From Clostridiales bacterium (GTDB lineage: Bacteria; Bacillota; Clostridia; Oscillospirales; CAG-272): a DNA stretch of 64,000 bases. Under the pieces are notes generated by a model. That model did not search any database and had not been told where the DNA came from. It saw only the letters and a program-made list of their open reading frames with translations. The stretch lies in contig JAAYLD010000032.1 of the NCBI GenBank assembly GCA_012522015.1, forward strand, positions 8,520 to 72,519, in the 5' to 3' direction. Both the position numbers and the translations under genes were made by a program. Shown here in pieces: positions 7,199 to 30,947 of the stretch. Each line of letters opens with the position of its first letter. The first letter of the stretch is position 1.

Positions 7199-7626
7199 TC
7201 GTTTTGACAGTAGGAACAAGAATCACAGTCCGGGAAGTCACGCTTATCGTACTCAATACCGTTTCTCTTGTAGTAATCTTCTATCGCCTTTTTTATGGCT
7301 TCCTCGGCAAGCACGGAGCAGTGAATCTTATGCGCCGGAAGTCCGTTAAGTGCCTCGACAACAGCTTTGTTTGTCAGCGAAAGAGCCTCTATGAGCGGCT
7401 TGCCCTTTATCATTTCAGTCGCCATTGAGCTTGCGGCGATTGCAGAGCCACATCCAAAGGTTTCAAACTTTACGTCGGTTATTACTCCATCGTTAATCTT
7501 GAGGTACATTCTCATGATGTCGCCGCACTTTGCGTTTCCTACTTCGCCTACGGCGTCAGCATCCTCAATGACGCCGACATTGCGAGGATGCCTGAAATGA
7601 TCCATTACAGTTTCACTGTATAACAT
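7195..7626 (-). CDS. nifU: Fe-S cluster assembly scaffold NifU/IscU-like
   Basis: MLYSETVMDHFRHPRNVG, NAKCGD and FGCGSAIASSS scaffold cysteines. The start is set at the internal Met; the track ORF is extended 27 codons upstream. Confidence 0.9.
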   Translation of the reverse strand: MLYSETVMDHFRHPRNVGVIEDADAVGEVGNAKCGDIMRMYLKINDGVITDVKFETFGCGSAIAASSMATEMIKGKPLIEALSLTNKAVVEALNGLPAHKIHCSVLAEEAIKKAIEDYYKRNGIEYDKRDFPDCDSCSYCQNE

Positions 7627-14654: not shown

Positions 14655-15421
14655 GCAATATCAACAATATAAATACCAATAATAGCAACAGCAATGCAAT
14701 CTTAGAAATCGTCAACCTTGAAAAAAGATTTGGCGAAAATAATGTGCTTCGTGATATATCAATGTCTGTTTTTGAGGGAGAGGTCGTATCGATCATCGGT
14801 TCATCCGGTGCCGGAAAATCAACGCTCCTTCGTTGTATAAACTTGCTTGAAGAACCGTCGGGTGGCGACATTCTCTTTCATGGCAAAAGCATTATCACCG
14901 ATCGTCAATCGATTTCGCGCTACCGCGCAAAAGTTGGCATGGTATTTCAACAGTTCAATCTTTTCAATAACATGACTGTGCTTCAAAACTGCGTTGTGGG
15001 GCAAGTGAAGGTGCTCGGACGCAGCCGTGCAGAAGCGGAAGAGACTGCAATAATGTACCTTGACCGCGTTGGAATGTACGCATTCTCCGATGCCCTTCCT
15101 CGTCAAATTTCGGGTGGTCAAAAACAGCGTGCTGCTATTGCCCGTGCATTATGTATGAATCCTGAGGTAATACTTTTTGATGAACCAACATCTTCCCTTG
15201 ACCCGGAGATGGTTGGTGAAGTGCTCGGAGTCATGCGCTATCTTGCAAAGGGCGGTATGACGATGCTCGTTGTCACACATGAGATGAGCTTTGCACGTGA
15301 AATATCTTCCCGAGTTGTTTTCATGGACTCTGGCATTATAGAAGAAGCTGATACGCCTGATGTCATCTTTACGTCCCCGAAAAAAGAACGCACACGAGCA
15401 TTTATATCAAGCATCCTTTAA
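14651..15421 (+). CDS. Amino-acid ABC transporter ATP-binding protein (GlnQ-like)
   Basis: Walker [10 protein letters not shown], signature ISGGQKQR, Walker B ILFDEPTS. It has a 4-nt overlap with the permease gene. Confidence 0.9.
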
Positions 15422-15469
15422 TTAATTTTAAAGCAGGCATCGAAATTAAATGTTTTAAAAAAAGCAATA

Positions 15470-15505
15470 AAACACCCTCGTACCACACGATACGAGGGTG
15501 TTTTC
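15470..15505. terminator. Bidirectional terminator between convergent operons
   Basis: CACCCTCGTA...TACGAGGGTG hairpin, preceded by an A-run and followed by TTTT. Confidence 0.75.
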
Positions 15506-15586
15506 ATTTGCCCGTTGTTCACTAAGCTATTGCATAGCCTACTGTTCTTCGCTTCTCTACAATTCTTTTCTTGTTTTTCTTAATGC

Positions 15587-16648
15587 TTATCCAACTATAC
15601 CCGCACGCTCTATACTCTCGACAAGATAACGCTGTAAAAATGCGTAGATAAGGATAAGCGGCAGCATTATGAGTATTCCACACGTGTTACGTATAGCTGC
15701 AACATACATGTTCTGACCAGGATACTCGGTATCAAGAGACCTCGGTATCTTAATGAAGGCACGAAGCGTGTATGGTCCTTGGCTCGTGAAGAAGACACGT
15801 GTGTAATAGTTATCTGTCCACTGCCATGAGAAAGCGAACATGAAGACAGTTATAAGCATCGGGATCGACAGCGGGAGGATAATCTGTACAAATGTACGGA
15901 AGGGTCCTGAGCCGTCGATATATGCTGATTCCTCAAGCTCATCGGGAACGCCACGGAAGAACTGACGCAACATAAATATGTAAAGACCGTTCTTAAAGGC
16001 AAGACCCGTTGCTGAAAGAATGTAAAATGGCCAATAAGTATTAATAAGCGATATGTCAGTGAATTTCAAGATATCTATGCTCTCAAATACACCGCCGCCG
16101 AGGAAGTTGAATATTCCAAAAATATCGAAATAACGGAACTTCATGAACATCGAAAGGCGAACAGTCGGGTGAGGCACTATCATCGTTAGGACAACAAACA
16201 TAAAGAGGATTTTGTTGCCCTTGAACTTGAACTTCGCGAAACCATAACCTATCAGACACGTTATAAATGTCTGAACGATAGCCGTTGATGCCGATAGAAT
16301 GAAGGTATTGAGCATCGCTCTGAAATACTCGTTATCGACTATAATGGCCTTATAGGTATCAAGCGTTGGATGTTTCGCGATAAGTAGAACTGTCGCGTCG
16401 ACAAAGTCCTCACGGCTCATGAACGACGATGCTACTTTTGAAATGAATGGGTAGATGATAACGTAAGATATACCGATCAGCAGTATCAATCTGAAAAGGT
16501 ACCACACTACGTCCTTGAGAAAGCTTACAGAAAATACTTTTATCTTAAATCTTTCCCACGCTGACGTACGGCCTTCAAAATCAACTCTGATCTTGTTCTT
16601 CGTTGCTTTTTTGACTACTGGTGAGCTCTGAATTCTATTTACATCCAT
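15587..16648 (-). CDS. Carbohydrate (CUT1-type) ABC transporter permease, second pair, MalG-like
   Basis: EAA loop LEESAYIDGSGPFRTFVQIILPLSIPM. Polytopic. It is the last gene of the 7-gene operon. Confidence 0.8.
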   Translation of the reverse strand: MDVNRIQSSPVVKKATKNKIRVDFEGRTSAWERFKIKVFSVSFLKDVVWYLFRLILLIGISYVIIYPFISKVASSFMSREDFVDATVLLIAKHPTLDTYKAIIVDNEYFRAMLNTFILSASTAIVQTFITCLIGYGFAKFKFKGNKILFMFVVLTMIVPHPTVRLSMFMKFRYFDIFGIFNFLGGGVFESIDILKFTDISLINTYWPFYILSATGLAFKNGLYIFMLRQFFRGVPDELEESAYIDGSGPFRTFVQIILPLSIPMLITVFMFAFSWQWTDNYYTRVFFTSQGPYTLRAFIKIPRSLDTEYPGQNMYVAAIRNTCGILIMLPLILIYAFLQRYLVESIERAGIVG

Positions 16649-16662
16649 CAGTCCGTTCCTCC

Positions 16663-17658
16663 TTATTCGTCACGTCTCTGATAGAAGACGTATGCGGAGA
16701 TGATACCGGAAACAACAACGATGAGGAGCGTAACTATCAGGAAGTACATCCACGCCATCGCCGATGATATAACGTTTCCGTCAGCACCAGTATCGTACAC
16801 CTGGTCGATATAAGTCATGACATTGTTGTCTGAACGAGTAAGAGCATCGATGATAGTGTAGATCGCGTTAACCAGTATCATCGGGCTGATCATCGGAAAC
16901 GTTATCTTCCAGAACGTTTCCCAGCCTGTAGCGCCGTCTATTTTGCATGATTCGTAAATCGCCGGAGATATTGACTGGAGACCAGCAAGGAATATTAGCA
17001 TCTGAACGCCAGAGCGGTTTACTATGTTAAATATGTTGTTAACCGCATTTACAACATACGCAACAAGATCAGATCCCACTCGCATATTAGCGAAGAGCAT
17101 CTCTACATCCATTACTCTAACAATCTCTGCAACGGTATTACGTCCAGTACCAGTATCAATTGATGCGCCGGTATCTCCCATGTAAGAGGCAAGTATGTTC
17201 TGAGCATCGATATCGCTTATCAAACCTGTCGCAATAATAACAGGTATGAAGAATATCGCACGGAACCCTGTTCGCCCCACAATGTTTTGGTTGAGTAGTA
17301 TGGCTATGAATAGAGCGAATATGATTATTGCTGGAATATCGAAAATTAACTCTCTTATACCGGACGTCAGCTCTGTTACATAGCTCGGGTCTACAAACAA
17401 TGCTTCCGAGTAGTTTTTAAAGCCAACCGGTACAAGTTCATAGCCACCACCCTGCAGCGTATTGATTTCATTGAAGCTGAACATGATTGAATTGTATATT
17501 ATCGGCAGATAGATAATTACAAGTCCAATCACAAACGGCAGTACAAACAACCAGCCAACACGTGCTTTACGTCTATCAAGTGAAGCGATACGGCGTCTCT
17601 TCTTGGGAGCTGAATCAATCTTAATTTTCTTTTTCTTAGCTTCAATATTCATATTCAA
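16663..17658 (-). CDS. Carbohydrate (CUT1-type) ABC transporter permease, second pair, MalF-like
   Basis: EAA loop IYESCKIDGATGWETFWKITFPMISPM. It carries a large loop insertion between the TM segments. Confidence 0.8.
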   Translation of the reverse strand: MNMNIEAKKKKIKIDSAPKKRRRIASLDRRKARVGWLFVLPFVIGLVIIYLPIIYNSIMFSFNEINTLQGGGYELVPVGFKNYSEALFVDPSYVTELTSGIRELIFDIPAIIIFALFIAILLNQNIVGRTGFRAIFFIPVIIATGLISDIDAQNILASYMGDTGASIDTGTGRNTVAEIVRVMDVEMLFANMRVGSDLVAYVVNAVNNIFNIVNRSGVQMLIFLAGLQSISPAIYESCKIDGATGWETFWKITFPMISPMILVNAIYTIIDALTRSDNNVMTYIDQVYDTGADGNVISSAMAWMYFLIVTLLIVVVSGIISAYVFYQRRDE

Positions 17659-17668
17659 ACTCCCTTCC

Positions 17669-20600
17669 TTATTTGATTGTTACAAAATTGTGTGCGGTTA
17701 CTGTATATGTTGTGCCATCAAGGACAACAGTTACATCAAACGTATTGTAGTTGAGGATAAACTTCTTACCCGTTTCATATGTGACAAGAACGATGGAACC
17801 GTCGTCGACTGTATACTTAGTCCTCTTATACCCTTCTTCCTCGTCCTCATCATCACGTCTGGGCCAGCCAGGCACAGACGGCACATTCGGTGAATTGCCG
17901 TCTTCACCTTCACTGGGCTCTTCGGATGGTTCCTCTTCAATGTGCTGAACTTCTTCGTAACCTGCGTTAAGAAGTACCTCATTGACAGTTGCCAGCGCAG
18001 ATTTTGTTTTTTCTATAGCACTGTCGGCATAAGTATTAACCCTAGCTGCGCTTGCAGCGACTGATGCATCATCAGTTATTTCTGTTTTACGCTTTGCCGT
18101 TTCTTTGTTGGCTTCAGCATCGTCTGCAGATTTTATAGCTGCTGTTATCGCTATCTTCATATTGGATACTGCTGACTCAAGCTCTGCCTGAGCATCAGTA
18201 ACTGCTAATTCTGCTTCTTCGAGAGCTGCTTTTGCCGCTTCGTCAGCAGCTTTTGCATCCTCATCGTTTGGTGCTTCAGCAAGCGCCGCAGCAGCCGCGT
18301 CAGCAGCAGCTTGTGCCGCATCTCTTGCAGCTATCGCATCGTCAAGCGCGCGCTTGAGCGATGTTACCTCCGATACAAGCCCAAGAGCAATTTCTATCTG
18401 CTCTTCAACAGCTGCAAGGAGTCCTTCTGTCTCATCAGCAAGAAGAGCCGTATCCTGTGGAGCTGATGCTATCTCTCTTGCAAGGGCTTCAGCAGCTTTA
18501 CGCTCAGCAAGAGCCTGAGCACGCCTTGCTTTTTCTTCAGCTATACGCTTTGCTTCTTCTTCAGCAGCAGCTCTTTCGGCAGCTTCTATCTGGTCTGCTA
18601 TGATTTCATCTTCATCAGGTATACGTTCACCGATAAGGAACTCATGTCCTGTGATAAGCGCCGTCTGAAGATCACCGACAGCATCGTTGACTATACTATA
18701 GTATTTTACAATATCGTCAAACCAGATGTCATAGCGCACTGAGTAATATCCGCTCAGTATCTCATCTTTCTTCAGCTCTGAAATATTTCTATAAGCGAGT
18801 ATGAAGTAAAGGGATGCGCCATTTTCGATTGCCTTGAGAACAGCATTGCTTATATCGCCTTCTTCGTTGATCGGGTTTCCGGCAATGTTAATGTAACCGT
18901 GAAGAACAAGTCCTACAAACGGAATTGAATATGTTTCGTTAAAGAACCGGCTGCTGTTAAGACGAGCATTAAGTATATGGTTTACATATTTGTAGGTGTA
19001 TGCATTACCTACATCGACCATGACATTACCGTAATCCTCGGAAATATCCTTGAGAAGTGCAATTGTAAACTTCTTGGAATCTTCGCGATTGAACGGATCA
19101 TCTTCATCAAAGTCTGCGTTCAAGTCAGAGCCGAGTGTCGCAACAGATATTCCAATTGGCTCATAATCAAGGTAATACGTTCTAAACTTTGTATAGAACT
19201 TGTCAAATACAGATGGGGAAATTGCAATTTCAAAGTATCTTACAAACGACTGAGATGTCGCGTTATAATAACGCTTACTCGCATAGCGGTCGTCTATCGT
19301 CTTAACTGCATGCTTTTTATAGCTAAATCCATCAAATGATTTATTGTTTGCAGCGTATGCAAAGTCAAAGTCAGGGAATATGCCAATTCCTTTTTCCTTA
19401 GCATATGCTAACAAATCCTTAAATCCGTCGGATCCGCCAACAGATTTCTCCCACTTCAGCCTATACGGGACATATTTATCAGATAGTCCTCCGTTTGCAA
19501 AGCCCCTTAGTCTGAAGTTAATGTTCGACACTCCCGCTTCACTTAGCTCTTTGTGCATAGTTATGATGTCCTCAAATGTTGTAAGCGGTGTATCGACTGT
19601 AACAGGAATTGAGAGAATTCTGTCTTTTGTCTCCATCGAACCAAGAACTTCGATGTAAAGCGGCATATCTTCTTTTACATCATTCTCGGTAAGCCTTGTG
19701 ATATATCCGTTCTTCTCAAGATAATCTCTGTAGGCCTTAGCCATGCCGAAATATGTCGCTTCATAATAATCGGTTACTCCGGCACTAGCTGCTACATCTT
19801 TATCGTCAAGCATTATATATCTAATTCTGTAGCTGTCGACATATTTACGTGGGGACTCAACACGCCACGTTACGTCTGAAGCAACGGATATCGACTGTGC
19901 AAGGTTATATTCATCTGAGGGACGCGGTATGAAGCTTGCGTAAATAGCAGCATATTTGTTAAGTGTACCGCCGTTTTCATACCTGATGCTTGCAAGAGAG
20001 TCGCCCTCTGTTATAATGGCAAGATAACCTTTACTGCGTGTATACGCTTCATAAATAACCGGCGGCTTCGGTTCTTCGGGCTCTACGGGTTCTCCGTTTT
20101 CATCAGTTTCATCAGTTTCATCAATTTCATCAATTTCATCAGTTTCAGTAATTTCATCAGTTTCAGCAATTTCAGCAGTTTCAGCAATTTCAGCAGTTTC
20201 AGCAGTTTCATCAGTTTCAGCAGTTTCATCAGTTTCGGTTTCAGATTCCGTATTATCAGTATTTTCAATAATACGATAATCTCTTACCTGTGTAACTGCG
20301 CCAAATACAGGCATTGTCAATATTTCCTGATGTGCGCCACTTATACTCTGATACGCAAAGTCTGGACCGTGGAGACTTCCCACTCTGTTCCATGATACTC
20401 TTCTCAAATCCATTGCGGAGAAGAGAGCTCCAGACCCGTCAGGCATAAACGTGTAACCCGGATTTTCTGAGCTAATGCAGCCCATGTATGGCAGTATAGA
20501 CACTGACAAGAGCTTGTAAGTAGTTTCGTCGTATTCTATACCGTTTGCTGCAAGACGAACAGTCACACCATCATCGTCAAGCGTGTACTCAAGCGCCATA

Positions 20601-21412
20601 CGGAAGAGAGCCGGCGCTTCATCTGTACCTTCGTACTCGGTGATAGCATGGTCTTCGTCGAGCATCTCATACGTATATTCTGGAGCATATGTCTTAATAG
20701 TGTTCTCACAATAATTAAGCTCGTTTTGAGTAACGGCCGAGTCTAATATATAAACCGACATTTTTGTCGTGATAGGATATTTCGCGTTCATCGCAGCAAT
20801 GGCGCGTTCAGATAGCTCAGGGTCTTTTGGATCCATTAACACATAGTGGTATTTAAGCTTTTTTTTGTTAAACTCGCTTGTTATTTTGCTGAGAATAATG
20901 TTCTCAAAGCGCTCCTTCTGAATCATTCTCGGAACGAGGCGTCTTACGTCCTCGCGCCCCATACTATACTCTACGCGGACACCATTTTTAATATCCTTAA
21001 CAACAATTTGGTTGCGGAGCGAAGCTTCTTCATAGCTATACATCCATTTTGTTGTTCCGTCTTTGTCCTGATATTCAACAAAAATCTGCGAAAGGATCCT
21101 ATAACGGATATTGTCTGAGTTCGCCGCGGTAATTGAACCGATATCGTAAGGGTTCGTGAAAAGAACCTGTCCTGTCGAATTCTTGACTATTGCAACTTCT
21201 CCTGTGTATTCTTCGACGTAAATCGAATAGCCGTTCTGAGTCTTATGCAGCACCATATCGTTTAGTTTATCCTGCTCAGACTCGTATTCGTACGTCATGT
21301 AGTCGACAGCGGCAACCGCTGCAGACACCCTATCAGTCGTATATATTCCAAAGGTGCCTACTACCATGAGGAAAGCCAGGAGACCTGATATGAATCTTAC
21401 ATGTTTCTTCAT
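17669..21412 (-). CDS. 1247-aa secreted or anchored multidomain protein of unknown function (from memory resembles the DUF5696 family)
   Basis: N-terminal signal/anchor (LLAFLMVVGTFGIY...VSA). Conserved-looking core (FMPDGSGALFS, MPVFGA, YLAIITEGDSLASI, YIEVLGS...NFRLRGFANGG, FPDFDFAYA). An acidic tandem-repeat insertion of about 85 aa. An Ala/Glu/Lys-rich helical region of about 230 aa. A small C-terminal beta domain. Confidence 0.6.
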   Translation of the reverse strand: MKKHVRFISGLLAFLMVVGTFGIYTTDRVSAAVAAVDYMTYEYESEQDKLNDMVLHKTQNGYSIYVEEYTGEVAIVKNSTGQVLFTNPYDIGSITAANSDNIRYRILSQIFVEYQDKDGTTKWMYSYEEASLRNQIVVKDIKNGVRVEYSMGREDVRRLVPRMIQKERFENIILSKITSEFNKKKLKYHYVLMDPKDPELSERAIAAMNAKYPITTKMSVYILDSAVTQNELNYCENTIKTYAPEYTYEMLDEDHAITEYEGTDEAPALFRMALEYTLDDDGVTVRLAANGIEYDETTYKLLSVSILPYMGCISSENPGYTFMPDGSGALFSAMDLRRVSWNRVGSLHGPDFAYQSISGAHQEILTMPVFGAVTQVRDYRIIENTDNTESETETDETAETDETAETAEIAETAEIAETDEITETDEIDEIDETDETDENGEPVEPEEPKPPVIYEAYTRSKGYLAIITEGDSLASIRYENGGTLNKYAAIYASFIPRPSDEYNLAQSISVASDVTWRVESPRKYVDSYRIRYIMLDDKDVAASAGVTDYYEATYFGMAKAYRDYLEKNGYITRLTENDVKEDMPLYIEVLGSMETKDRILSIPVTVDTPLTTFEDIITMHKELSEAGVSNINFRLRGFANGGLSDKYVPYRLKWEKSVGGSDGFKDLLAYAKEKGIGIFPDFDFAYAANNKSFDGFSYKKHAVKTIDDRYASKRYYNATSQSFVRYFEIAISPSVFDKFYTKFRTYYLDYEPIGISVATLGSDLNADFDEDDPFNREDSKKFTIALLKDISEDYGNVMVDVGNAYTYKYVNHILNARLNSSRFFNETYSIPFVGLVLHGYINIAGNPINEEGDISNAVLKAIENGASLYFILAYRNISELKKDEILSGYYSVRYDIWFDDIVKYYSIVNDAVGDLQTALITGHEFLIGERIPDEDEIIADQIEAAERAAAEEEAKRIAEEKARRAQALAERKAAEALAREIASAPQDTALLADETEGLLAAVEEQIEIALGLVSEVTSLKRALDDAIAARDAAQAAADAAAAALAEAPNDEDAKAADEAAKAALEEAELAVTDAQAELESAVSNMKIAITAAIKSADDAEANKETAKRKTEITDDASVAASAARVNTYADSAIEKTKSALATVNEVLLNAGYEEVQHIEEEPSEEPSEGEDGNSPNVPSVPGWPRRDDEDEEEGYKRTKYTVDDGSIVLVTYETGKKFILNYNTFDVTVVLDGTTYTVTAHNFVTIK
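20098..20243 (-). repeat. About 15-16 tandem 9-nt coding repeats (units TTCATCAGT / TTCAGCAGT / TTCAGCAAT / TTCATCAAT on the plus strand)
   Basis: The periodicity is directly visible. It encodes (T/I)(D/A/T)E triplets: ...TDETAETDETAETAEIAETAEIAETDEITETDEIDEIDETDETDE... Confidence 0.95.
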
Positions 21413-21443
21413 GCTTTTAAACCGTCCTTCCTTTCTTCCCTCA

Positions 21444-23576
21444 TTATGCTCTATATGTCAGCTCAACGATGATGCTTGAGATGAAGCTCACCATCTGAGC
21501 GACAAGTGTTGAAAACAGTACAGATACGAATATTACGAACGCCATACCAACGATGGTTCCCAGAGATGTCGTTACATTCTTTAACAGTGAATAATCGTGT
21601 GTAACCATCATTCCGAAGAAGATTAGTAAACCCATCCAGAAGAACGCCATGCTCACAAGAAGCGTAATTAACTGTCCCTCATTTTGAGCAAGCATGTTGC
21701 TTAATATAACGGAGGGGATTACAAGCATCGGAATCGGTAACAAGCTATAAGATGTTGCAATGAATATATCTTTAAAGCTTCCTTCGCCATCGAAAAGCGT
21801 CGTCAGACACCAGTTTGCCACGACCCAAAGAAGCAGCGGCACGACAACTGATGCTATCTGAGCGAAAATGTTCATATAGGATTCCGTCGGGTTAAAGATA
21901 TACCCTGTACCTACTGATTGATAGTAGAAGGTAAAGACCGTAACGACTATATATATGATACTCGCTCTGACGCTTCCGCGATATTCGTGCTTGAGATCCC
22001 AGAATCCGTCAAATGGATGGAAGATCAAATGGAAACCGTATAACAGCTCCTCCTTCAGACTCTTGCGACCGACTCTAAGCTGTGCAGCCTTATTAACGCG
22101 CGCCGCATATTTGAAGAACTTCGTAATAAGAACACATATTACGACGACAATTATTGGAATTGTCCATATCCACTTTGACACCCATTCCTTACGAACCTCA
22201 CGGAACGCATCAGAATACGAGGCTGCGTTATATGCGAACTTGTAATACTCCATCGCTTCCTTATACTTAGCATCGCGCTTAAGTGCATCACCAATGCCGA
22301 TGTAAGCAGCATCGAAGTTGCTGTTGCGCTGGAGTATGTCCATCCAGCCTGATACCGCCATATCATAACGGCGTTGATTCTGGTGAGCTAATGCTTCTAT
22401 CAGAAGGTTGCCGTATTCAGTCCTCTTATAAACGGTGAAGCAGTCCTTAGATTTGTCAAGTAATAGTATATCGTCGCCTTTGTATGTGATTGCTTCAATA
22501 TTATATATATTACCAAGTTGCTCGCCAGTGTCGCCAAAAGCGAAGAGAAGGTTGCCGTATTTGTCATACGTAAAGACTTTGCTACGTTTTTCGTCGATTA
22601 TCGACCATGTACCTTCCGGACCGACGGCAACATCAATAATTTTTGACGGACCGCTTATTGCACCAGCTCTTGAACTGAAGCTGAAATTTATCTCACCGGA
22701 CGGCGGCCAAAAACCGTTTCTGCTCATGATATCGGCGCCGGAAGCATTCAGCTTTTTAACCGGTGCATAGTCACCCGATTTTGAGCGCGAGTTTATAGCC
22801 GATGCAACTGAGTTTTCATCAATCGATGATGTCGTAACGTAAATAAATCCGTCTTTATCAATCGTTATATTATTAAACTCAGTTGACACGTATTCCTGCT
22901 GAGATTCTCTCTGCTCTTTTGTTTGCAGTCTTCTCCAGATGATTTCCATCGGGCTGATGACAACCTTCTGAGCACCAATAAATCCGGAGAATTTTGCATT
23001 ATCATCCATGACGATGATACCTTGATATGTCGTGGATGACACAACAAACAATCTGTTATACTGGTCAACAGCAACGGCTACCGGTTTATACACAGCAGCT
23101 TCTGTGAAAAGCGGGGATACAGGTTTCGGAATTATCTTATAATAATTCCCGTCGCGATCGAACATTACTATGCGGTTGTTATTGGTATCACAAACATAAA
23201 TGTATTTATCACTAATGAACACGCCCGATGGGCTATTAAAACTGTCCCAAACGCCATGTTCATTAAGGAATCTACTTATCTCAAACTTATACTTGTAATA
23301 CCGATCCATAACGATGACACGGTTATTTGCCCCGTCAACAAGATATACATTCCCTTGGTCGTCGACGGTCAAATCGCGCGGGTCATCAAAAGGATAGATA
23401 AGTCCGATATAATCTGAATCGATTATCTTATCGGGAACATAAGCATCGGGCGAAAGAAGTGCAAATCCGTCAGCAGAATACGTATATGTCGCATATGAGC
23501 TGAAAGCGGAAGCGCTTGTTGCAAGTATAGACACCAGAATAAATAGTGTAAGGAAGGAAAGAATTCGCTTTTTCAT
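21444..23576 (-). CDS. Secreted NHL-repeat beta-propeller fused to a TPR-like segment and a C-terminal multi-pass Yip1-like membrane domain
   Basis: Signal peptide ...ATSASA. Repeated NHL-type blades (DDQGNVYLVDGANNRVIVMD, KYIYVCDTNNNRIVMFDRDGN, DQYNRLFVVSS, DKDGFIYVT, DKYGNLLFAFG). A TPR-like stretch YKEAMEYYKFAYN. Then about 6 hydrophobic helices in the last ~230 aa. Confidence 0.6.
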   Translation of the reverse strand: MKKRILSFLTLFILVSILATSASAFSSYATYTYSADGFALLSPDAYVPDKIIDSDYIGLIYPFDDPRDLTVDDQGNVYLVDGANNRVIVMDRYYKYKFEISRFLNEHGVWDSFNSPSGVFISDKYIYVCDTNNNRIVMFDRDGNYYKIIPKPVSPLFTEAAVYKPVAVAVDQYNRLFVVSSTTYQGIIVMDDNAKFSGFIGAQKVVISPMEIIWRRLQTKEQRESQQEYVSTEFNNITIDKDGFIYVTTSSIDENSVASAINSRSKSGDYAPVKKLNASGADIMSRNGFWPPSGEINFSFSSRAGAISGPSKIIDVAVGPEGTWSIIDEKRSKVFTYDKYGNLLFAFGDTGEQLGNIYNIEAITYKGDDILLLDKSKDCFTVYKRTEYGNLLIEALAHQNQRRYDMAVSGWMDILQRNSNFDAAYIGIGDALKRDAKYKEAMEYYKFAYNAASYSDAFREVRKEWVSKWIWTIPIIVVVICVLITKFFKYAARVNKAAQLRVGRKSLKEELLYGFHLIFHPFDGFWDLKHEYRGSVRASIIYIVVTVFTFYYQSVGTGYIFNPTESYMNIFAQIASVVVPLLLWVVANWCLTTLFDGEGSFKDIFIATSYSLLPIPMLVIPSVILSNMLAQNEGQLITLLVSMAFFWMGLLIFFGMMVTHDYSLLKNVTTSLGTIVGMAFVIFVSVLFSTLVAQMVSFISSIIVELTYRA

Positions 23577-23589
23577 TTTTTCTTCCCCC

Positions 23590-24465
23590 TTAGTCTTTCA
23601 TACCGCTTGTTCCCATTGTTTCGATGATATTGCTCTGCGAAACAACGAAAACAATGATCGGAACTGCCATCATGATAACTGTAGCGGCTGCTGAAGCACC
23701 TGCACGAGCGATACCGCCTGCTGTTATCTGTGAAATAGCGTAGTTAAGTGTCTTTAGCTGCTCTGACTGAATGTAAATTGATGCGCCAGCGTTCCAAAGT
23801 CCGTTAAAGCTGTAGATAATAAGCGTCAGCCAAGCAGGCTTAACCATTGGCATTGCTATTGCCCAGAACGAGTAGAACTCCGACGCGCCATCAAGTCGAG
23901 CGCTTTCAAGAATTTCGTCTGTTACGTTTGATTCCATAAATTGCTTCATCAAATATAAGCCAAGGTTATATGCAAAGGCCGGAACGATGATGGCATAGTA
24001 TGTGTCAACCCAGCCGAGAAGGCTCATTATAATAAAGGAAGCAATCGCACCGACAGTCGCTGTAAACATAAGCGACTTAACAATTATGTTAAACATAAAT
24101 TCACGGCCGGGGAATTTAATCTTCGCAAGTGCGTAAGCTGCCATTGAGCAGAAGATAAGACTTCCGAATGTACCCGAAATAGAGATGAAAACAGTATTAA
24201 ATATATAACGGGAAAACGGAACCCACGAGTCAGACATTAAGGAGAAAAGATCCCTGAAATTTTTAAGCGTAGGATTTACGACGTAAAAACGCGGAGGGAA
24301 CATCCATAACTCGTCAAGCGGCTTAAGCGCTTGCATTAAGACATATAACATCGGCAGGAACATGAACACGCCCATGATCGAAAGGAACACAGTTATTCCA
24401 ATGTCGCCCCCGACCGAGCGGTTCAGTACGACGGCGTGTTTTCTTGTTCTAAGTTTCTTCGCCAT
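23590..24465 (-). CDS. Carbohydrate (CUT1-type) ABC transporter permease, first pair, MalG-like
   Basis: EAA loop ILESARLDGASEFYSFWAIAMPMVKPA. Confidence 0.85.
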   Translation of the reverse strand: MAKKLRTRKHAVVLNRSVGGDIGITVFLSIMGVFMFLPMLYVLMQALKPLDELWMFPPRFYVVNPTLKNFRDLFSLMSDSWVPFSRYIFNTVFISISGTFGSLIFCSMAAYALAKIKFPGREFMFNIIVKSLMFTATVGAIASFIIMSLLGWVDTYYAIIVPAFAYNLGLYLMKQFMESNVTDEILESARLDGASEFYSFWAIAMPMVKPAWLTLIIYSFNGLWNAGASIYIQSEQLKTLNYAISQITAGGIARAGASAAATVIMMAVPIIVFVVSQSNIIETMGTSGMKD

Positions 24466-24466
24466 A

Positions 24467-25429
24467 TCACTGACCTACCTTTGCTAACATTTTTTGTATC
24501 AATAAGTTTGCTCCCATCATCATTGCGAATAGCACAACAGAAATTGCCGAGGAGTATCCCACCTCCCAACGTTGCCCGCCGTAGTCTTCAAGATGGTGCG
24601 TTATAGTCCAAGCAGCGTATTCAACTGATGGGAAACCAGCAAGAGCCGTAACGACACCTCCGAATCCAAAGGAACCTGTTATAGCCAAAACAGCACCGAA
24701 CAGTAGCTGCGGCTTCATTGTCGGAAGCGTTACATACCAAAGCTCCTGCCAGCGGTTCCTGATACCGTCAACAGCCGCTGCCTCATAATATGCCTTTGGT
24801 ATGCCCTGAAGTCCAGCGATGAATGAAAGGAACGCTGTACCGAGAGACGTCCAAAGAGCAACTATGATACATAGAATCATAACGTATCTTTTATCATAGA
24901 ACCAAAGAACTGGATTGTCTATGACGCCAAGATTGAGCAGGAAACCGTTTACCCAACCATAGGCATCGTTTGAGAAAAGCGTACCCCAAATTAAGTACAC
25001 GCTACCCGAAATAGACGGGGCGTAGAAAATAAGTGTAACAAACGCTCTTACTTTCGGCGTCAGCTCGTTTATGAACCATGCGATAAAAAGAGACATAAGG
25101 TAAGATGTAGGTCCGGTAACCGCCGCGAATATCAAAGTATTCTTAACGGCCAAGATAAATATATCGTCGTCAAGAAACAGACGTATATAGTTATCAAGGA
25201 AGATAAACTTCGGCCACTGTAACATGTTAAATGACGTAAAGCTCAAGAAAATCGACATAACAACCGGAACAACTGTGAACATGAGAAAGAGGATCATAAA
25301 CGGAGCAACCATAAAATAGGCTACTTTATTCCTCTTCATTTCATGCCATGTCCATTGAGCCTTCGTCATGTCCTTCCGTGAAACTGCGTGCTGCTCGGCA
25401 GGCACAACGTTTTTCTTTGACATGAGCAA
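24467..25429 (-). CDS. Carbohydrate (CUT1-type) ABC transporter permease, first pair, MalF-like
   Basis: EAA loop YYEAAAVDGIRNRWQELWYVTLPTMKPQ. It lies 1 nt from the next gene. Confidence 0.85.
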   Translation of the reverse strand: MLMSKKNVVPAEQHAVSRKDMTKAQWTWHEMKRNKVAYFMVAPFMILFLMFTVVPVVMSIFLSFTSFNMLQWPKFIFLDNYIRLFLDDDIFILAVKNTLIFAAVTGPTSYLMSLFIAWFINELTPKVRAFVTLIFYAPSISGSVYLIWGTLFSNDAYGWVNGFLLNLGVIDNPVLWFYDKRYVMILCIIVALWTSLGTAFLSFIAGLQGIPKAYYEAAAVDGIRNRWQELWYVTLPTMKPQLLFGAVLAITGSFGFGGVVTALAGFPSVEYAAWTITHHLEDYGGQRWEVGYSSAISVVLFAMMMGANLLIQKMLAKVGQ

Positions 25430-25480
25430 CTTCTCCTTAATTAGATTATCTTATCGCAAATGCCGTTTTACTACGACAAT

Positions 25481-28400
25481 TTATTCGATATAACTGTAAA
25501 GTGCTGTAGCAGACTCCTTCATATATCCTGCGGCCTCGCCAAACAGTTCAGAATTAGCTTTGACAAGCTCATCCGCTGCAGCAATCAAAGCATCGAACTG
25601 CTCAGTTGTTGCGTCACCCGAAAGCGCTGCGTCAATTGCCGCTTTTGCAGCTGATACCTTATCAGCATACTTGCTCGCTTCATCACCTTTAAGCTTATTT
25701 AATATTGCAAGTGCCTGATCTGCGCGCTTTTCTGCTAATGTCTGTCCTATCTCAAGCGTCTCAAGGTTGAACTCCTCGCGCTTACGGCTGATTTCCTTAT
25801 TAATTGCATTAATATAGCCTAACAGCGCCTCAGAAGGAGAAGCTTTTTCGTTATATGCACTAAGGAATGCGAAGTTCGTGTAACGGCCTATGATATAGCT
25901 GCCCGGATAGTTTGGAACTGCTGTCAGGGCGTCGAACTGCGCTCTTAAACTCTTATACTCGAATGATGACCACGGAAGCTCTTCAAGCGCCGCGATGTTC
26001 GCAGTCGGGTTCATTCCGGCTTCTCCTAAAAGCGCAACTAACTCATTACAGTAGTCGGCCTGGAATTCACTGTCTGTATACCAGTCAATAAATCTCCATG
26101 CTCCCTCCGGGTTGTCTGTACCGGTAAGCATTACGACACCCGCTACTGAAGATACAGCCGTGTTGTTTATTGTTCCATCGTCCTGCAACATACCGGGTAT
26201 CGTGGTGAAATCCCACAAACCTGCAATTTCAGTCGCAAAGATGACGAGCTGGTTATACGATGTGTATGGTGAAATTGCTATCGGTATTTCACCCGTTCTG
26301 AAGCGGTTTGCAAAGTCATATGTATACGGCAGCGAATACATCGTAAACATATTACACATCATCTCAAACGCCTCGAGCGCAGTGTTCGAGTCGAGATTGA
26401 CGCGCATACCATTGTCTGCGTAAAGCTCGCCGCCCATCTGATACAGGTACGTCAGATAGTCCGTAGTAAGACCAATGTCCATTTTGTTATACTGAAGCAC
26501 CGGTATCATAGCAAGAAGATCTTCCCACGTCTTCGGAACCTCAAGCCCTAAGTCCGCAAGTATATCCTTACGGTAGAAGAGCATCGGGAACGTCTGTGTT
26601 TCCGGTATTGCGTATGTTTCGCCATAAAGTGTAAGCGGTATCGTTGCAGCAGGAGAGAATCTTGACAGAACTTCATCAAATGTATCAAAGTCGTTCAGCT
26701 TTATAAGTGCTCCACGTATCGCATAGTTGATGACGTCACCGTCGCCCATGAAAAGCGATACATCGGGGCCAACTCCCGCAAGAACCGAGGGCAGGAGAGT
26801 ACCGCCGGCAACAAGCTTAAGGTTGACGGCTATGCCCGACTTCGGAGAGAATTTATTATCTATTAAGTTACGTATAATCTGAGCCTGGTCACGACCGGTG
26901 GTAACCCACACGTCTACGGAGTCCGTTCTGTCGATTTCAACAGTCGAACCAAGCGAGTTGTAATCGGTGAAGAAGCTTCCGATGAACTGACGGATCTCAT
27001 ACCAAATGGACTGTAAGAAACCTGCCTCTGCCTTCGGAAGCGGAGCAGACACGGGCTGAATATATATCGTGTCGATTTCAAGCGGCTGCTTTGTAACTGT
27101 ATTTATCCACGTACCAAGAGTACCAATATTAGACTTAAGGAGAGAAAGGTTTTTAGCTATCTCATCTTCATCAGATCCCATTTTTTCAACGAGACGTTGA
27201 ATCTGAAGAAGCGACGCCGTATTTGAACCTGTAACTCCGTTCATGCTCTTGAGCTGTTCAATTACACGCTCAAGATTATTGCCTTCCCTGACAAGCGACC
27301 TGATTGTATCAGGCATAACACGGCTGAAACCATAGTCACGGTATTTATCAGGGTTTGTACCAGTAAGCTTCAATATATGAAGGTAGGCGTTGTTGATTAC
27401 ATCAAGCGTTTCTGAAACCTGTCCTACTATCGTACCGAGCTCACCAAGAGATACTTCAAGCTCAATCGTGTGAGTTCCGGGAGTAAAGTAGAACTGATAC
27501 CCTATACCGCCTCCGTCGTCGTCACCAAGAGCTTTTGACTGCCAATCTGTGCTGTAATCAAAGCGCAGGGCGTTTGCTTCTTCAAACGGAACTTTACCGT
27601 CAACTCTCAGACGGCGAGATACATAAATTCCGTTTAGCTCGGACTGTTTAAAGCGGACAGCTATCTGATAAAGCCCTTCTTTTTCAACATCAAACTCGTA
27701 CCTAATCCAATAACCAGCGTTCTGCCACTTATTGGAGCCAATGGTATTGAGCTTTATATGCGTCGGATGCTGAGGAACGGTAATAGCGGAAGTTCTATCG
27801 TATATTGGATATATTGTCTCATGAGATGTGTTTGTCGTAATTTCGGCTCTTATCTTTATCGGTTCAGCATCAGCCTCTTTGTATCCAGCTTTAACGTATT
27901 CAGCTTCAACTTCGGCATATGTCGGAAGATCCTGATACGGATAAAGGCGTATGTACTTAATAACAACTGGCTCACGAACACATTCAAGAGCTATTGTGTT
28001 CTCACCCTCTTCGAAGTAAAACTCGAATGGGTTCGAGTAATAACCGTTAGCATCTATAAATGAATAGGTTCTCCATTCGGGATCGATTTCTGCTACTGGG
28101 CGAATGTCGTTACCATTTATATCAACGTTAAACGTATAATTACCTTCATCGTCGACAGGGTAAAGATTTTTCCATACTTTTGTCATGGCAAGGTAGCGCG
28201 CTTCAGCAAAAGGAACCTTGCCGTTTATGTAGAACATACGCTCAATTGAGTTTGTCGTACTACCAACGGGATAATACTGTATCTCAATAGCATAAAGCCC
28301 GGTTTCCGGAACATTGATCGGCCAGACGACTGTTCCAGAATCCGATATATAAAGGGCGTCCCCCTCCATGCCTTCATAATCTTTGTAAACGTCAACTTTA

Positions 28401-28681
28401 GCCGTCGTCTTCTCAGCGTCGTAATTAACCGCCTCAATTATAACCTCTTTTGTAGCGCGGACGGCGTCTTTGTGTTGCGCGCGATACTTTACATATGAAA
28501 TCGCATTAAGCGCCTCGCTTATTTCAGCAAGTGTTTTCTTTTCCGTTGTTTCTTCGTTTTTACTCGTGTTAGAATCAGCGGCATCTGCTGCTACAACAGG
28601 CACAACAGCAGCAGCCGTTCCCGTTATTATCAGTACGGCTAAAATAAACGCTATAAGCTTATTAAGCTTCGTTCCCACCAT
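25481..28681 (-). CDS. 1066-aa extracellular solute-binding protein with an N-terminal extension holding two related beta-sandwich-like modules
   Basis: Signal/anchor LIAFILAVLIITGTAAAVV. Two similar modules (..GLYAIEIQYYPVG...RMFYINGKVPFAEA.. and ..GLYQIAVRFKQSE...RRLRVDGKVPFEEA..). SBP family-1-like core (VDVWVTTGRDQAQIIRNLIDNKF...). A helical C-terminal tail. SD is GGAGGG. Confidence 0.7.
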   Translation of the reverse strand: MVGTKLNKLIAFILAVLIITGTAAAVVPVVAADAADSNTSKNEETTEKKTLAEISEALNAISYVKYRAQHKDAVRATKEVIIEAVNYDAEKTTAKVDVYKDYEGMEGDALYISDSGTVVWPINVPETGLYAIEIQYYPVGSTTNSIERMFYINGKVPFAEARYLAMTKVWKNLYPVDDEGNYTFNVDINGNDIRPVAEIDPEWRTYSFIDANGYYSNPFEFYFEEGENTIALECVREPVVIKYIRLYPYQDLPTYAEVEAEYVKAGYKEADAEPIKIRAEITTNTSHETIYPIYDRTSAITVPQHPTHIKLNTIGSNKWQNAGYWIRYEFDVEKEGLYQIAVRFKQSELNGIYVSRRLRVDGKVPFEEANALRFDYSTDWQSKALGDDDGGGIGYQFYFTPGTHTIELEVSLGELGTIVGQVSETLDVINNAYLHILKLTGTNPDKYRDYGFSRVMPDTIRSLVREGNNLERVIEQLKSMNGVTGSNTASLLQIQRLVEKMGSDEDEIAKNLSLLKSNIGTLGTWINTVTKQPLEIDTIYIQPVSAPLPKAEAGFLQSIWYEIRQFIGSFFTDYNSLGSTVEIDRTDSVDVWVTTGRDQAQIIRNLIDNKFSPKSGIAVNLKLVAGGTLLPSVLAGVGPDVSLFMGDGDVINYAIRGALIKLNDFDTFDEVLSRFSPAATIPLTLYGETYAIPETQTFPMLFYRKDILADLGLEVPKTWEDLLAMIPVLQYNKMDIGLTTDYLTYLYQMGGELYADNGMRVNLDSNTALEAFEMMCNMFTMYSLPYTYDFANRFRTGEIPIAISPYTSYNQLVIFATEIAGLWDFTTIPGMLQDDGTINNTAVSSVAGVVMLTGTDNPEGAWRFIDWYTDSEFQADYCNELVALLGEAGMNPTANIAALEELPWSSFEYKSLRAQFDALTAVPNYPGSYIIGRYTNFAFLSAYNEKASPSEALLGYINAINKEISRKREEFNLETLEIGQTLAEKRADQALAILNKLKGDEASKYADKVSAAKAAIDAALSGDATTEQFDALIAAADELVKANSELFGEAAGYMKESATALYSYIE

Positions 28682-28956
28682 AGAACCTTTTCCCTCCTGA
28701 GATATTACGGCGCGTCATCTTCCAGTCGTGGTTCACTGGCAATAGATTAAATCTATACGCCGTTTAAAAAAGATCTTCCGCTCACCGCGCACCGATTCGT
28801 CGCCAAAAAAATATAAGTTATTCGGCAAAAAGTATCCGGAGCGCAGTTACGGCGCAAACGGCTTCTCTCCGCGCGATAAACACGCGGGGCAACCACTCTG
28901 CGCCTTTTACGAGTCATAATACGTTTTATGTATAATGTCTCATTTTCGATAAAACA

Positions 28957-28985
28957 ATATTATCATAAGGATATTATTATGTCAA
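28957..28985 (-). promoter_or_regulatory. Sigma-A promoter of the 7-gene operon
   Basis: On the minus strand: TTGACA (28985-28980), a 17-nt spacer, then TAATAT (28962-28957). This implies a leader of about 265 nt. Confidence 0.55.
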
Positions 28986-29302
28986 GCATATACAAAATGA
29001 GCCCCTTCACAATATGGGCAGTTAATCCCTAATAAAAAATCGTTAACTTTGAGTTAACAATAATCTGCTTTCGCATAACCGACGGCGATAATAAGCTGCA
29101 CCCGTGTTTTTCACTGACAAGGTAATTAACATTTACCTTGTTTTCAAAATTAGCAAGGTTTCTGCATAAACATTGCGCTAATAATCGGCTATTTTGCCGC
29201 ATTAAGCCCTATACATATGCTCTGGTAACATATATTTACCTGTTTTCTTTGTTCAAAACACTATTACAGCGTTTTTCCAGTACTGCCCACCTTTATTTGG
29301 AA

Positions 29303-29365
29303 TGTGTATTTTGCACAAAATTTGACCGTTTTTTTCTACACATGTGCTTTTTGCACAAATTTCAC
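29303..29365. promoter_or_regulatory. Two related ~22-bp sites 40 bp apart, each containing a TGTGN-N5-GCACA inverted repeat
   Basis: Site 1 is GTGTATTTTGCACAAAATTTGAC (29304-29326). Site 2 is GTGCTTTTTGCACAAATTTCAC (29344-29365). In site 2, TGTGC-TTTTT-GCACA is a perfect palindrome. Confidence 0.4.
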
Positions 29366-29510
29366 GGACAAGCCCGCTTAAAAAGAAGCAGTAACTCTTT
29401 GCAGGTGAATTCAAGACAAATATGTATAAAAATGGTATGTATAGTTGCAATTATCAACTAATTCTCCTGCAATAGCTTATAAAATAAAGCACATTACTAA
29501 TTTTCAACAC

Positions 29511-30719
29511 TTATTGCTCGTCATAATTACCTGTGCGAAGTTTCCTAAGGCGCATCACTATCGGCGGAAGCTGTTCAAGAATATAATCAACATCAGCATC
29601 CGTGTTCGTATAAGACAGAGATATACGTATTGAGCTGTCAGCTTCCTCCCGTGAAAGCCCAAGCGATAAAAGTACGCGTGACGGGTCACGTATGCCTGTA
29701 GCACAAGCTGAGCCTGTTGAAACATAAATGCCCTTCATATCGAGTAAAATTGCTACGCTCTCACCCGAAACACCGTCAATTGACACATTTACATTACCGG
29801 GCAGACGCATATCTGGGTCACCATTCAGGCGAACGCCGGGGATGGCAGCGGTGAGTCCTTTTATAAGCCTGTCGCGCATTGCACGCACACGCTCTACATC
29901 ACGCATCAGGTCAACCGAAACCTCAAGCGCACGCGCCATCGCCACAATACCCGCAACATTTTCCGTGCCGGGGCGGATACCATTCTCTTGCCCTCCGCCG
30001 CCGATAATGCGCGCAAAAGGCACTCCCCGCCTGATGTAAAGAGCGCCGACTCCCTTCGGTGCACCAAACTTGTGCCCTGAAAAGCACATCGTATCAACGC
30101 CAAGTTTTTTCACGTCGATGGGTATCACGCCGACTGCCTGCGTAGCATCTGTAAATGAAAGTGCGCCAGCTTCCTTTGCAGCGTCCCCCACCTCGCCAAC
30201 TGGCTGTATTGTTCCTATTTCATTGTTCGCAAGCACAATGGCAACAAGAGCAGCGCCTCCATGCGCGGCGCTGAGCGCAGCTTCTATATCGCGCGCACTG
30301 ACGATGCCCGATGTATTACAGCCTACATAATCTACACAGTATCCTTCACCTTCAAGCCGCCGGCAGGTTTCGTAAACGGCCGGATGTTCAATTGTCGTTG
30401 TGATAATACACCGACGCCCATATGCCTCGCGCATAGCATGAGCTGCACCGCGGATAGCGATGTTTGCTGATTCCGTAGCGCCGGATGTAAAGTAAAGCTC
30501 GTCCGGCTCACAACCGATAATAGCGGAAATTCGTTCCCTTGCGTCCCGGATGGCTGCTTTCGCTATGCGGCCTTTTGCATGCAGGCTTGACGGATTCCCC
30601 CACGCATCATATAAATAAGGAAGCATAGCTTCGACAGCCTGTGGCATAACAGGAGCTGTTGCTGCATTATCAGCGTAAACAAATACGCTTTTTTCTTCAT
30701 TTTTATCTTTACTTTCCAT
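29511..30719 (-). CDS. Cysteine desulfurase, second NifS-like paralog
   Basis: PLP lysine FSGHKFGAPKGVG and catalytic loop STGSACATG. No scaffold gene is adjacent. Confidence 0.85.
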   Translation of the reverse strand: MESKDKNEEKSVFVYADNAATAPVMPQAVEAMLPYLYDAWGNPSSLHAKGRIAKAAIRDARERISAIIGCEPDELYFTSGATESANIAIRGAAHAMREAYGRRCIITTTIEHPAVYETCRRLEGEGYCVDYVGCNTSGIVSARDIEAALSAAHGGAALVAIVLANNEIGTIQPVGEVGDAAKEAGALSFTDATQAVGVIPIDVKKLGVDTMCFSGHKFGAPKGVGALYIRRGVPFARIIGGGGQENGIRPGTENVAGIVAMARALEVSVDLMRDVERVRAMRDRLIKGLTAAIPGVRLNGDPDMRLPGNVNVSIDGVSGESVAILLDMKGIYVSTGSACATGIRDPSRVLLSLGLSREEADSSIRISLSYTNTDADVDYILEQLPPIVMRLRKLRTGNYDEQ

Positions 30720-30947
30720 GTTGTTTTAAAGCAAGCGCCTCACCGACGCCTTACTGTTTTGACTTTATGCATTATTTTATACTATATTTGATTTGTACGC
30801 AACAAAAAGCATTTTCCATTCTCATTTACAGATATTATTTTTTAATGTAGATATATCAGCGCTTTACTTCACGCTGCAACCGCATTATAATGAAAAAAAC
30901 ACTTTATCGCAACGCTTTTTGTAGCCCATGCTTCGGAGGTGCTAATT

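Follow-up and report, generated by a model that had tools for sequence, protein, structure and literature searches.

A conserved seven-gene cassette of Bacillota with two sugar-type permease pairs, a Yip1/NHL protein and a GH129-like DUF5696 protein as a candidate carbohydrate import platform

Carbohydrate uptake transporter 1 (CUT1) importers belonging to the ATP-binding cassette (ABC) type, such as MalEFGK2, UgpBAEC and MsmEFGK, the last of which draws on a shared MsmX/MsmK ATPase, are recognized by an extracellular solute-binding protein (SBP) with the MalE-like cluster-B fold, a heterodimer of MalF- and MalG-like permeases with ATPase-coupling EAA loops, one such pair per locus and binding protein, and a MalK/MsmX-type ATPase with a C-terminal regulatory domain. 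Here we describe a cassette of seven open reading frames (ORFs) on the minus strand, positions 15587–28681, of a 64-kb stretch of DNA from a Clostridiales bacterium (contig JAAYLD010000032.1), the whole of which is called the window and supplies all coordinates unless another locus is named. The cassette combines the SBP and the permeases of such an importer with two large surface proteins, and we consider it probable that it is a platform for the capture, processing and import of carbohydrate with a CUT1-type ABC importer as its base; for carbohydrate import by itself our certainty is much higher. Its genes are, in 5' to 3' order:

25481–28681, minus strand: 1066-aa SBP (Pfam, PDB sequence matches, AlphaFold2 [AF2] model, Foldseek)
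24467–25429, minus strand: permease 1a, 320 aa, MalF/UgpA-type, with EAA loop (YEAAAVDG...LP) (Pfam, NCBIfam)
23590–24465, minus strand: permease 1b, 291 aa, MalG/UgpE-type, with EAA loop; the most conserved cassette gene
21444–23576, minus strand: 710-aa NHL/Yip1 membrane protein (Pfam NHL, SBBP and Yip1; transmembrane segments)
17669–21412, minus strand: 1247-aa secreted or anchored DUF5696 protein (Pfam, AF2, Foldseek, hhalign)
16663–17658, minus strand: permease 2a, 331 aa, MalF/UgpA-type, with EAA loop; a hydrophilic insert separates transmembrane helices 3 and 4
15587–16648, minus strand: permease 2b, 353 aa, MalG-type, with EAA loop; the N-terminus is extended

The sizes are those of the ORF list, and the ORF coordinates give gaps between successive genes of 51, 1, 13, 31, 10 and 14 nt; a purine-rich stretch resembling a ribosome-binding site precedes each of the seven genes. 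A preliminary description of this DNA had reported the same coordinates, sizes, order and gaps, and its domain calls were all reproduced by Pfam, with which NCBIfam agrees.

In its parts the cassette closely resembles a CUT1 importer. The SBP has the cluster-B, MalE-like fold, and the MalF and MalG heterodimer with EAA loops is present twice (BPD_transp_1 matches; UgpA/UgpE/MalG similarities in NCBIfam), with permease 1b scoring 25.1 bits against the 26.4-bit Pfam cut-off for BPD_transp_1 and being clearly UgpE/MalG-like in NCBIfam. The differences lie in the assembly. Two anciently diverged permease pairs form one unit, and two pairs rather than one are found in every locus; the SBP, with ~570 additional residues at the N-terminus, is 2.5 times as large as normal and in most cases has no lipobox; and the NHL/Yip1 and DUF5696 proteins are obligatory partners, encoded between the two permease pairs. 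A MalK/MsmX-type ATPase with a C-terminal regulatory domain is encoded neither in the cassette nor elsewhere in the window.

We know of no described precedent for an importer with two translocators in one conserved unit, and our literature searches were also empty: in the library searched, no paper was found that mentions DUF5696 or PF18952 or gives an account of the cassette, and nothing was found on a YIP1 family protein with an ABC transporter or SBP, or on NHL, Yip1, a sugar ABC transporter and an SBP together. The genes are individually annotated in public genomes, and the Gram-positive carbohydrate ABC import locus is known as a kind; new are the fixed two-translocator architecture, the Yip1/NHL partner, the unclassified putative enzyme family resembling glycoside hydrolase (GH) family GH129, and the breadth across the Bacillota.

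Conservation of the cassette across the Bacillota

A DUF5696 profile scan of species-representative genomes gave at least 578 confirmed relatives. The best 80 of these matches, together with three loci from exact-protein look-ups, formed a set of 83 loci in which gene order was checked by tblastn with the seven window proteins. The full order SBP, permease 1a, permease 1b, NHL/Yip1, DUF5696, permease 2a, permease 2b was found on one strand in 64 loci, the remaining 19 end at contig edges, and no rearranged order occurs among the 83; the order is thus complete in 64 of 64 sufficiently long loci from related metagenome-assembled genomes (MAGs). Nearly all of these genomes belong to uncultured Clostridia of rumen, gut and digesters, and the nearest relative among the matches listed is "Clostridiales bacterium DTU064", with 86–96% protein identity. 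Median identities across the relatives are 76% for permease 1b, 69% for permease 1a, 65% for permease 2a, 63% for permease 2b, 60% for the NHL/Yip1 protein, 49% for the SBP and 47% for the DUF5696 protein, and by this measure the membrane components are the most tightly constrained. The flanks of the 83 loci are not kept as a set: NifS/NifU, AlaRS and a ROK kinase recur as neighbors, no ATPase or regulator is recurrent, and a GH3 gene is found in four loci only.

The same cassette is found at far greater distances. A tblastn search of plasmid records detected DUF5696 in Butyrivibrio fibrisolvens D1 (27% identity) and Paenibacillus cellulosilyticus (22%), and the annotated order is identical in both records, with a 977–986-aa SBP, two permeases, NHL and YIP1, DUF5696, and two further permeases. 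Seven more distant loci keep this order (P. mucilaginosus, Neobacillus kokaensis, Cohnella luojiensis, two MAGs, a metagenome contig and a sequencing-run assembly), the DUF5696 identity in all nine being 22–28%. Judged by this conservation of order, the seven genes are one conserved functional module. A lack of synteny in relatives had been named in the preliminary description as a result that would refute its reading; this test fails decisively, the order being intact in all 64 complete loci and in the nine distant ones. The similar neighborhoods that it mentioned for Clostridia and Paenibacillus, with a large SBP, YIP1 and DUF5696, were likewise recovered.

The cassette could instead be a juxtaposition of independent systems, namely two ABC importers and two unrelated surface proteins, with pair 2 using an SBP encoded elsewhere. 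The extra lipoprotein-type SBP seen in several distant loci (see below) would fit such an arrangement of one SBP per pair. However, from Oscillospiraceae-type MAGs to Paenibacillus all seven genes keep their order and orientation, while what flanks them differs altogether, and neighboring genes are spaced 1–51 nt apart in the window and overlap one another in the record from Paenibacillus. Juxtaposition is strongly disfavored because chance adjacency would not survive such divergence, and we give it very little credence.

Within the module, each permease has its counterpart at the same position in other lineages. Permease 1a is 55% identical to the same-position permease of Butyrivibrio and 42% to that of Paenibacillus; the corresponding values for permease 2a are 40% and 35%, compared with only ~23% between permeases 2a and 1a. 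Across lineages the orthologue of pair 1 is pair 1, and likewise for pair 2, whereas identity between the two pairs is ~23%. This low identity between the pairs, together with the position-wise orthology, indicates that the duplication is ancient and preceded the split of Clostridia and Bacilli; as far as their sequences tell, the two pairs are not redundant copies.

The Bacilli loci also bear on the supply of energy. In the three that are annotated upstream (Paenibacillus, Neobacillus), the first gene encodes an MsmX/UgpC-type ATPase (ABC_tran, OB_MalK and TOBE_2 domains). The presence of this ATPase in cis in the Bacilli versions supports the importer function, and with it supply in trans for the window, whose cassette is likely powered by an ATPase encoded elsewhere; the likeness to CUT1 importers would then extend to an ATPase that is shared in trans in the window and encoded in cis, with its OB_MalK/TOBE regions, in the Bacilli. 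An ATPase in trans had already been proposed for this locus, and the proposal gains support from the Paenibacillus and Neobacillus cassettes.

The oversized binding protein and the NHL/Yip1 partner

From N- to C-terminus, the AF2 model of the SBP (predicted local distance difference test score [pLDDT] 83.4) comprises a signal/anchor helix, beta-sandwich modules at ~80–250 and ~275–412, a four-helix region at 415–530, a MalE-like fold at aa 588–980, and C-terminal helices. Matches to SBP_bac_1/8 above the Pfam thresholds are confined to the C-terminal half, at aa 603–879. PDB sequence matches are to oligosaccharide and sugar SBPs, and the top Foldseek matches are oligosaccharide-binding SBPs with target template-modeling (TM) scores of 0.7–0.8, whose ligands include cycloisomalto-oligosaccharide, mannotriose, sophoro-oligosaccharide and cycloalternan.

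The big SBPs of the window, Butyrivibrio and Paenibacillus are without a lipobox, which is present in 7 of 49 homologues; the two small SBPs of Butyrivibrio carry lipoboxes. Distant loci often encode one or two extra conventional SBPs, of ~450–540 aa, beside the cassette:

L164, 16495–19925: extra SBPs
L167, 17–1369: extra SBP
L168, 1555–2931: extra SBP
L170, 1660–3042: extra SBP
L171, 10096–11511: extra SBP

The window carries no extra conventional SBP. In the lineages that have them, each permease pair could have its own binding protein. That two translocator cores go with one binding protein, as claimed in the preliminary description, stands for the window clade; in view of the additional SBP in several distant loci, the sharing itself is putative.

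The 710-aa protein begins with a signal peptide, followed by an extracellular NHL beta-propeller (~30–370), TPR-like helices (~375–460), a transmembrane helix and the Yip1 domain (516–685). PDB matches are to NHL propellers and TPRs, and the Yip1 match covers the full model length at 49.8 bits against a 28.6-bit cut-off (E = 5e-13), with hydrophobic segments present. The NHL and Yip1 parts are fused in the window clade, Paenibacillus and Neobacillus, and split into adjacent genes, with a Yip1 protein of 206–210 aa, in Butyrivibrio, Cohnella and several MAGs; this occurrence as a fusion in some lineages and as neighbors in others indicates that the two parts work together.

The closest described counterpart is YknW, a protein of the Yip1 family that organizes, and is needed by, the Bacillus YknXYZ ABC transporter (PMC4887032). 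Both are bacterial Yip1-domain membrane proteins encoded with an ABC transporter. YknWXYZ, however, is a MacB-type exporter with a membrane-fusion protein, whereas the cassette encodes type-I importer permeases, and an extracellular NHL propeller with TPR-like helices is either fused to the Yip1 domain of the cassette or encoded next to it. By analogy, the Yip1/NHL protein would associate with its partner ABC transporter; its putative role as a scaffold is one of the weaker steps of the mechanism proposed below.

The DUF5696 protein and a proposed mechanism

The DUF5696 (PF18952) match is strong, at 447.9 bits against a cut-off of 25.6 bits (E = 8e-134). The protein consists of an N-terminal hydrophobic helix, an extra N-domain of ~240 aa, a beta-sandwich and a (beta/alpha)8 barrel (~585–925), inserts, and a C-terminal beta segment. 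An AF2 model of aa 1–960, built with 55 homologues, has a pLDDT of 81.8 and a predicted TM score of 0.76. Foldseek against the PDB ranked GH129 first, the E values being 4e-24 for ZgGH129 (5OPQ) and 6e-20 for NagBb (5WZP/5WZN) (target TM scores 0.62–0.71, ~0.7 for NagBb; probability 1.00), followed by GH101, GH31 and GH36. The entry 5WZN is the NagBb alpha-N-acetylgalactosaminidase of Bifidobacterium bifidum, and 5OPQ is the 3,6-anhydro-D-galactosidase ZgGH129.

By sequence, the DUF5696 family profile finds NagBb weakly (E = 1), with an aligned motif that spans barrel strands 1–2 (NagBb 293–360, window aa 607–674). Alignment with hhalign reached a probability of only 80% for NagBb with a shallow DUF5696 profile, and 97.2% (E = 4e-11, 520 columns) with a deep profile of 39 sequences including the Paenibacillus, Butyrivibrio and Cohnella types. 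NagBb-encoding DNA was recovered from gut metagenomes, and the published numbering (Asp435, Glu478, Trp398) was checked. A single-sequence PDB search with the DUF5696 protein gave no match, and in a Pfam scan of 40 members no GH model was matched, GH129 and GH101 included. The link to GH129 emerged solely from structure comparison and profile–profile alignment.

Apart from this motif, DUF5696 shares with GH129 the combination of beta-sandwich, (beta/alpha)8 barrel and C-terminal beta segment, and it has a conserved Asp at the end of strand 4 that may correspond to the GH129 nucleophile. It differs from GH129 in having ~10% sequence identity, no Pfam GH129/GH101 match, no conserved carboxylate at the acid/base position, conserved residues of its own (Glu863, which is Leu in NagBb, Asp351 and Asp325), the extra N-domain, and, in the window clade, long low-complexity and helical inserts. 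Profile and model together identify DUF5696 as a remote GH129 homologue with the fold of GH129, GH101, GH31 and GH36. Membership in GH129 itself was rejected, there being no Pfam GH match and no conserved acid/base carboxylate aligned. Of the statement in the preliminary description that the locus holds no ATPase, regulator or known glycosidase, the first two parts hold throughout the window; the last holds for annotation only, the DUF5696 protein having a glycosidase fold.

Five residues stand out in the deep DUF5696 family, namely D351 (39/39), N849 (39/39), E863 (38/39), D325 (37/39) and D767 (36/39). Judging by conservation and strand position only, the nucleophile is likely to be Asp767, found where barrel strand 4 ends, with Glu863 or an N-domain aspartate (Asp351 or Asp325) as the candidate for the second catalytic residue.

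The family comprises 2,908 clusters at 50% identity (E <= 1e-30), and lengths range from ~760 to >2,500 aa among the top 150 matches. The extra length of the window protein consists of two inserts. The first is an acidic insert (pLDDT <50 at aa 385–434), which corresponds to a repeat in the DNA:

20098–20236, minus strand: tandem repeat of period 9/18, ~15 copies, encoding the E/T/D-rich acidic insert at aa 385–440 of the DUF5696 protein

The second is a helical, Ala/Glu-rich insert of ~250 aa (~935–1185) after the barrel, which is followed by the conserved C-terminal beta segment of ~50 aa; in the 750-aa DUF5696 proteins of Paenibacillus this segment directly adjoins the barrel.

From these components we propose the following mechanism. 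The N-terminal modules of the SBP would hold a glycan at the cell surface, where DUF5696, with Asp767 as the likely nucleophile, would cleave or trim it extracellularly. The SBP fold would deliver the oligosaccharide products to the two translocators, perhaps of different specificity, both of which would be powered by an MsmX/MsmK-type ATPase encoded elsewhere, and the NHL/Yip1 protein, by analogy with YknW, would hold the membrane and surface parts together. The catalytic role that we infer for DUF5696 is a weaker step, as is the scaffold role of the Yip1/NHL protein, and the substrate may differ between lineages. Surface capture, processing and import had also been hypothesized in the preliminary description; this is the best-supported reading of the data, while still inferential. 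A bolder version, in which the four permeases, the Yip1/NHL protein, the big SBP and DUF5696 form one stable supercomplex of surface and membrane, a Gram-positive counterpart of the Bacteroidota utilisome where a new glycosidase family feeds two coupled translocators organized by Yip1, is conceivable but rather doubtful.

Several observations weigh against the platform as proposed. Catalysis by DUF5696 is a plausible prediction, but the GH129 acid/base residue, NagBb Glu478, aligns to Gly802 beside Asn803, with no conserved carboxylate; at position 800 nearby, D/E is found in 49 of 56 close relatives and in only 16 of 39 sequences of the deep family. The NagBb nucleophile Asp435 aligns to the non-conserved Asp763, four residues before Asp767, in a low-confidence stretch by a gap. 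The Gly/Asn at the acid/base position, the variability of position 800, the absence of a Pfam GH match in all 40 members and the status of DUF5696 as the least conserved cassette gene would also suit an import platform of the same kind in which DUF5696 is non-hydrolytic, either as a glycan-binding or scaffold protein or through transglycosylation, phosphorolysis or lyase-type elimination; some GH31 relatives use non-hydrolytic chemistry. We nevertheless regard a non-hydrolytic DUF5696 as unlikely, given that D325, D351, D767 and E863, together with N849, are kept in at least 36 of 39 sequences at 20–28% identity, a pattern that is active-site-like and not scaffold-like, and that D767 lies at the strand end where this fold class places the nucleophile.

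Further points against the proposed platform concern capture and substrate. A CBM35-like nature of the SBP N-terminal modules is a lead, not a finding, the matches behind it being sub-threshold throughout (CBM_35, E = 0.06; Golvesin_C, E = 0.002–0.05; the CBM35 structure PDB 2VZP, E = 0.03), as is that of GH115_C in the Paenibacillus SBP (E = 5e-4). The extra SBPs of several distant loci make the link of the big SBP to both permease pairs a putative one. Neighboring carbohydrate-active enzymes (CAZymes) do not name a single substrate, since the glycosidase families beside distant loci vary by locus (GH43; GH26/GH113/GH9; GH30/GH35; GH2/GH38; GH95/GH10; GH3). Finally, the window clade lacks a regulator, an ATPase and an accessory glycosidase, and its neighbors are housekeeping genes, an uncommon setting for a locus that serves foraging; neither the cassette nor the whole window was found to encode an MsmX-type ATPase, a regulator or an annotated glycoside hydrolase.

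This setting invites another explanation, in which the window-clade cassette helps the cell to turn over or recycle its own glycopolymer, of the envelope or extracellular, a housekeeping rather than a foraging task. It would account for the lack of regulators and accessory CAZymes in the window and most related MAG loci, for neighbors that are core genes (NifS/NifU, AlaRS, ROK sugar kinase, FtsK, MltG, UppP), and for the presence of the cassette in very many species of the clade (at least 578 matching stretches). We find it distinctly unlikely. Cassettes of Butyrivibrio, Cohnella, Neobacillus and other MAGs adjoin LacI/AraC-type regulators and plant-glycan hydrolases, the signature of a nutrient locus, and operator-like palindromes upstream of the promoter candidate (described below) leave room for regulation in trans.

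The import platform resembles the Gram-positive polysaccharide utilization loci, which combine a surface glycosidase, an ABC importer and a regulator; with them the cassette shares a co-encoded importer, a protein with a glycosidase fold and putative modules that bind glycans at the surface. The regulators beside distant cassettes are LacI, an AraC-type response regulator with kinase, or none, and transporter, CAZyme and regulator occur together in distant orthologous loci, unlike in the window, where the transporter is present and a classified CAZyme and a regulator are absent. Unlike those loci, the cassette has a fixed seven-gene core whose composition is independent of the flanking enzymes. 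The SusCD utilisomes of the Bacteroidota are a functional analogy only, the cassette having no outer-membrane or TonB-dependent component.

If the platform reading is true, it makes sense of a large, widely distributed group of surface proteins now called "hypothetical", DUF5696 being spread across gut, rumen and digester Clostridia and soil Paenibacillaceae. DUF5696 would then be a candidate for a new family of glycoside hydrolases with kinship to GH129/GH101, ABC importers would include an architecture in which one conserved unit holds two translocators, bacterial Yip1 proteins would have a role other than that of YknW, and lineages would attach different glycosidases and regulators to a fixed platform. 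The hypothesis is directly testable because cultured carriers exist, namely Butyrivibrio fibrisolvens D1, Paenibacillus mucilaginosus, P. cellulosilyticus, Neobacillus kokaensis and Cohnella luojiensis.

Control signals and genomic surroundings

The following control signals and neighboring gene were located around the cassette:

28957–28985, minus strand: promoter candidate, sigma-70-like, TTGACA-17 nt-TG-TAATAT
28682–28956, minus strand: 5' leader, long and structured, separating the promoter candidate from the start codon of the SBP gene
15469–15504, minus strand: intrinsic terminator with a 16-bp stem, 7 GC pairs and a T-rich tail; the sole strong terminator-like site in 15000–30000
30939–32003, divergent from the cassette: ROK-family gene of the sugar-kinase type

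Of the sites in the 829-bp intergenic region the promoter candidate is the best placed, and it is kept in the close relative L004. The promoter scan as a whole gave 29 sites against 31 expected in shuffled sequence, that is, no enrichment; the candidate is plausible, supported by position and not by statistics. Of the "single good promoter" reported earlier, the site was thus found again, as a call based on position in a scan no richer than shuffled sequence. The terminator, at 15504–15469 on the coding strand, agrees with the earlier call, and terminator-like sites within the cassette are all weak, with stems of 5–8 bp.

The 5' leader (269 nt, 28682–28950) has a minimum free energy of -90 kcal/mol, well below that of shuffled sequence (z = -3.5), and includes a hairpin with a U-run after it. 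A search of Rfam gave no match, and a known riboswitch or other known RNA was ruled out on that ground. With nhmmer the leader was found in L004, weakly in L001, and at no other locus; as a sequence it is not widely conserved, and it may serve as an attenuator specific to this lineage.

Upstream of the promoter candidate lie two types of palindrome. Near-palindromic boxes of the form ATGTG(Y)(W)TTTTGCACAAA(W)TT occur at 29302–29322 and 29342–29362, spaced 40 nt apart, and boxes of the GGTAA-N7-TTACC type at 29121–29143 and 29224–29246; both types are also present upstream of the L004 cassette. The palindromes at 29121–29362 could be operators for a regulator encoded elsewhere.

The ROK-family gene starts directly at the kinase motif, without an N-terminal helix-turn-helix, and was for this reason ruled out as the missing regulator. 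A ROK gene occupies the same position in 10 related loci, and the kinase may phosphorylate an imported hexose. The other genes of the window are of the housekeeping kind: transketolase, ZnuABC, MnmA, two NifS-like desulfurases, ThiF, GreA and an amino-acid ABC system, and further an M23 peptidase, an ECF transporter, MltG/YceG, FtsK, PNPase, PheST, a U32 peptidase, UppP and PGK.

Among the distant loci, two from Paenibacillus (L165, 15580–24803; L166, 17958–22021) carry several genes for luciferase-like (LLM-class) flavin monooxygenases and further SBPs after the cassette, an association that is puzzling in a carbohydrate system. In the window, the two NifS-like class-V aminotransferase (cysteine desulfurase) genes lie at 7613–8803 and 29511–30719, near the genes for MnmA and ThiF. 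In 17 related loci, too, the cassette has a NifS-like gene, in many cases together with NifU, immediately upstream, and this recurrence indicates that the cassette sits in a conserved housekeeping neighborhood.

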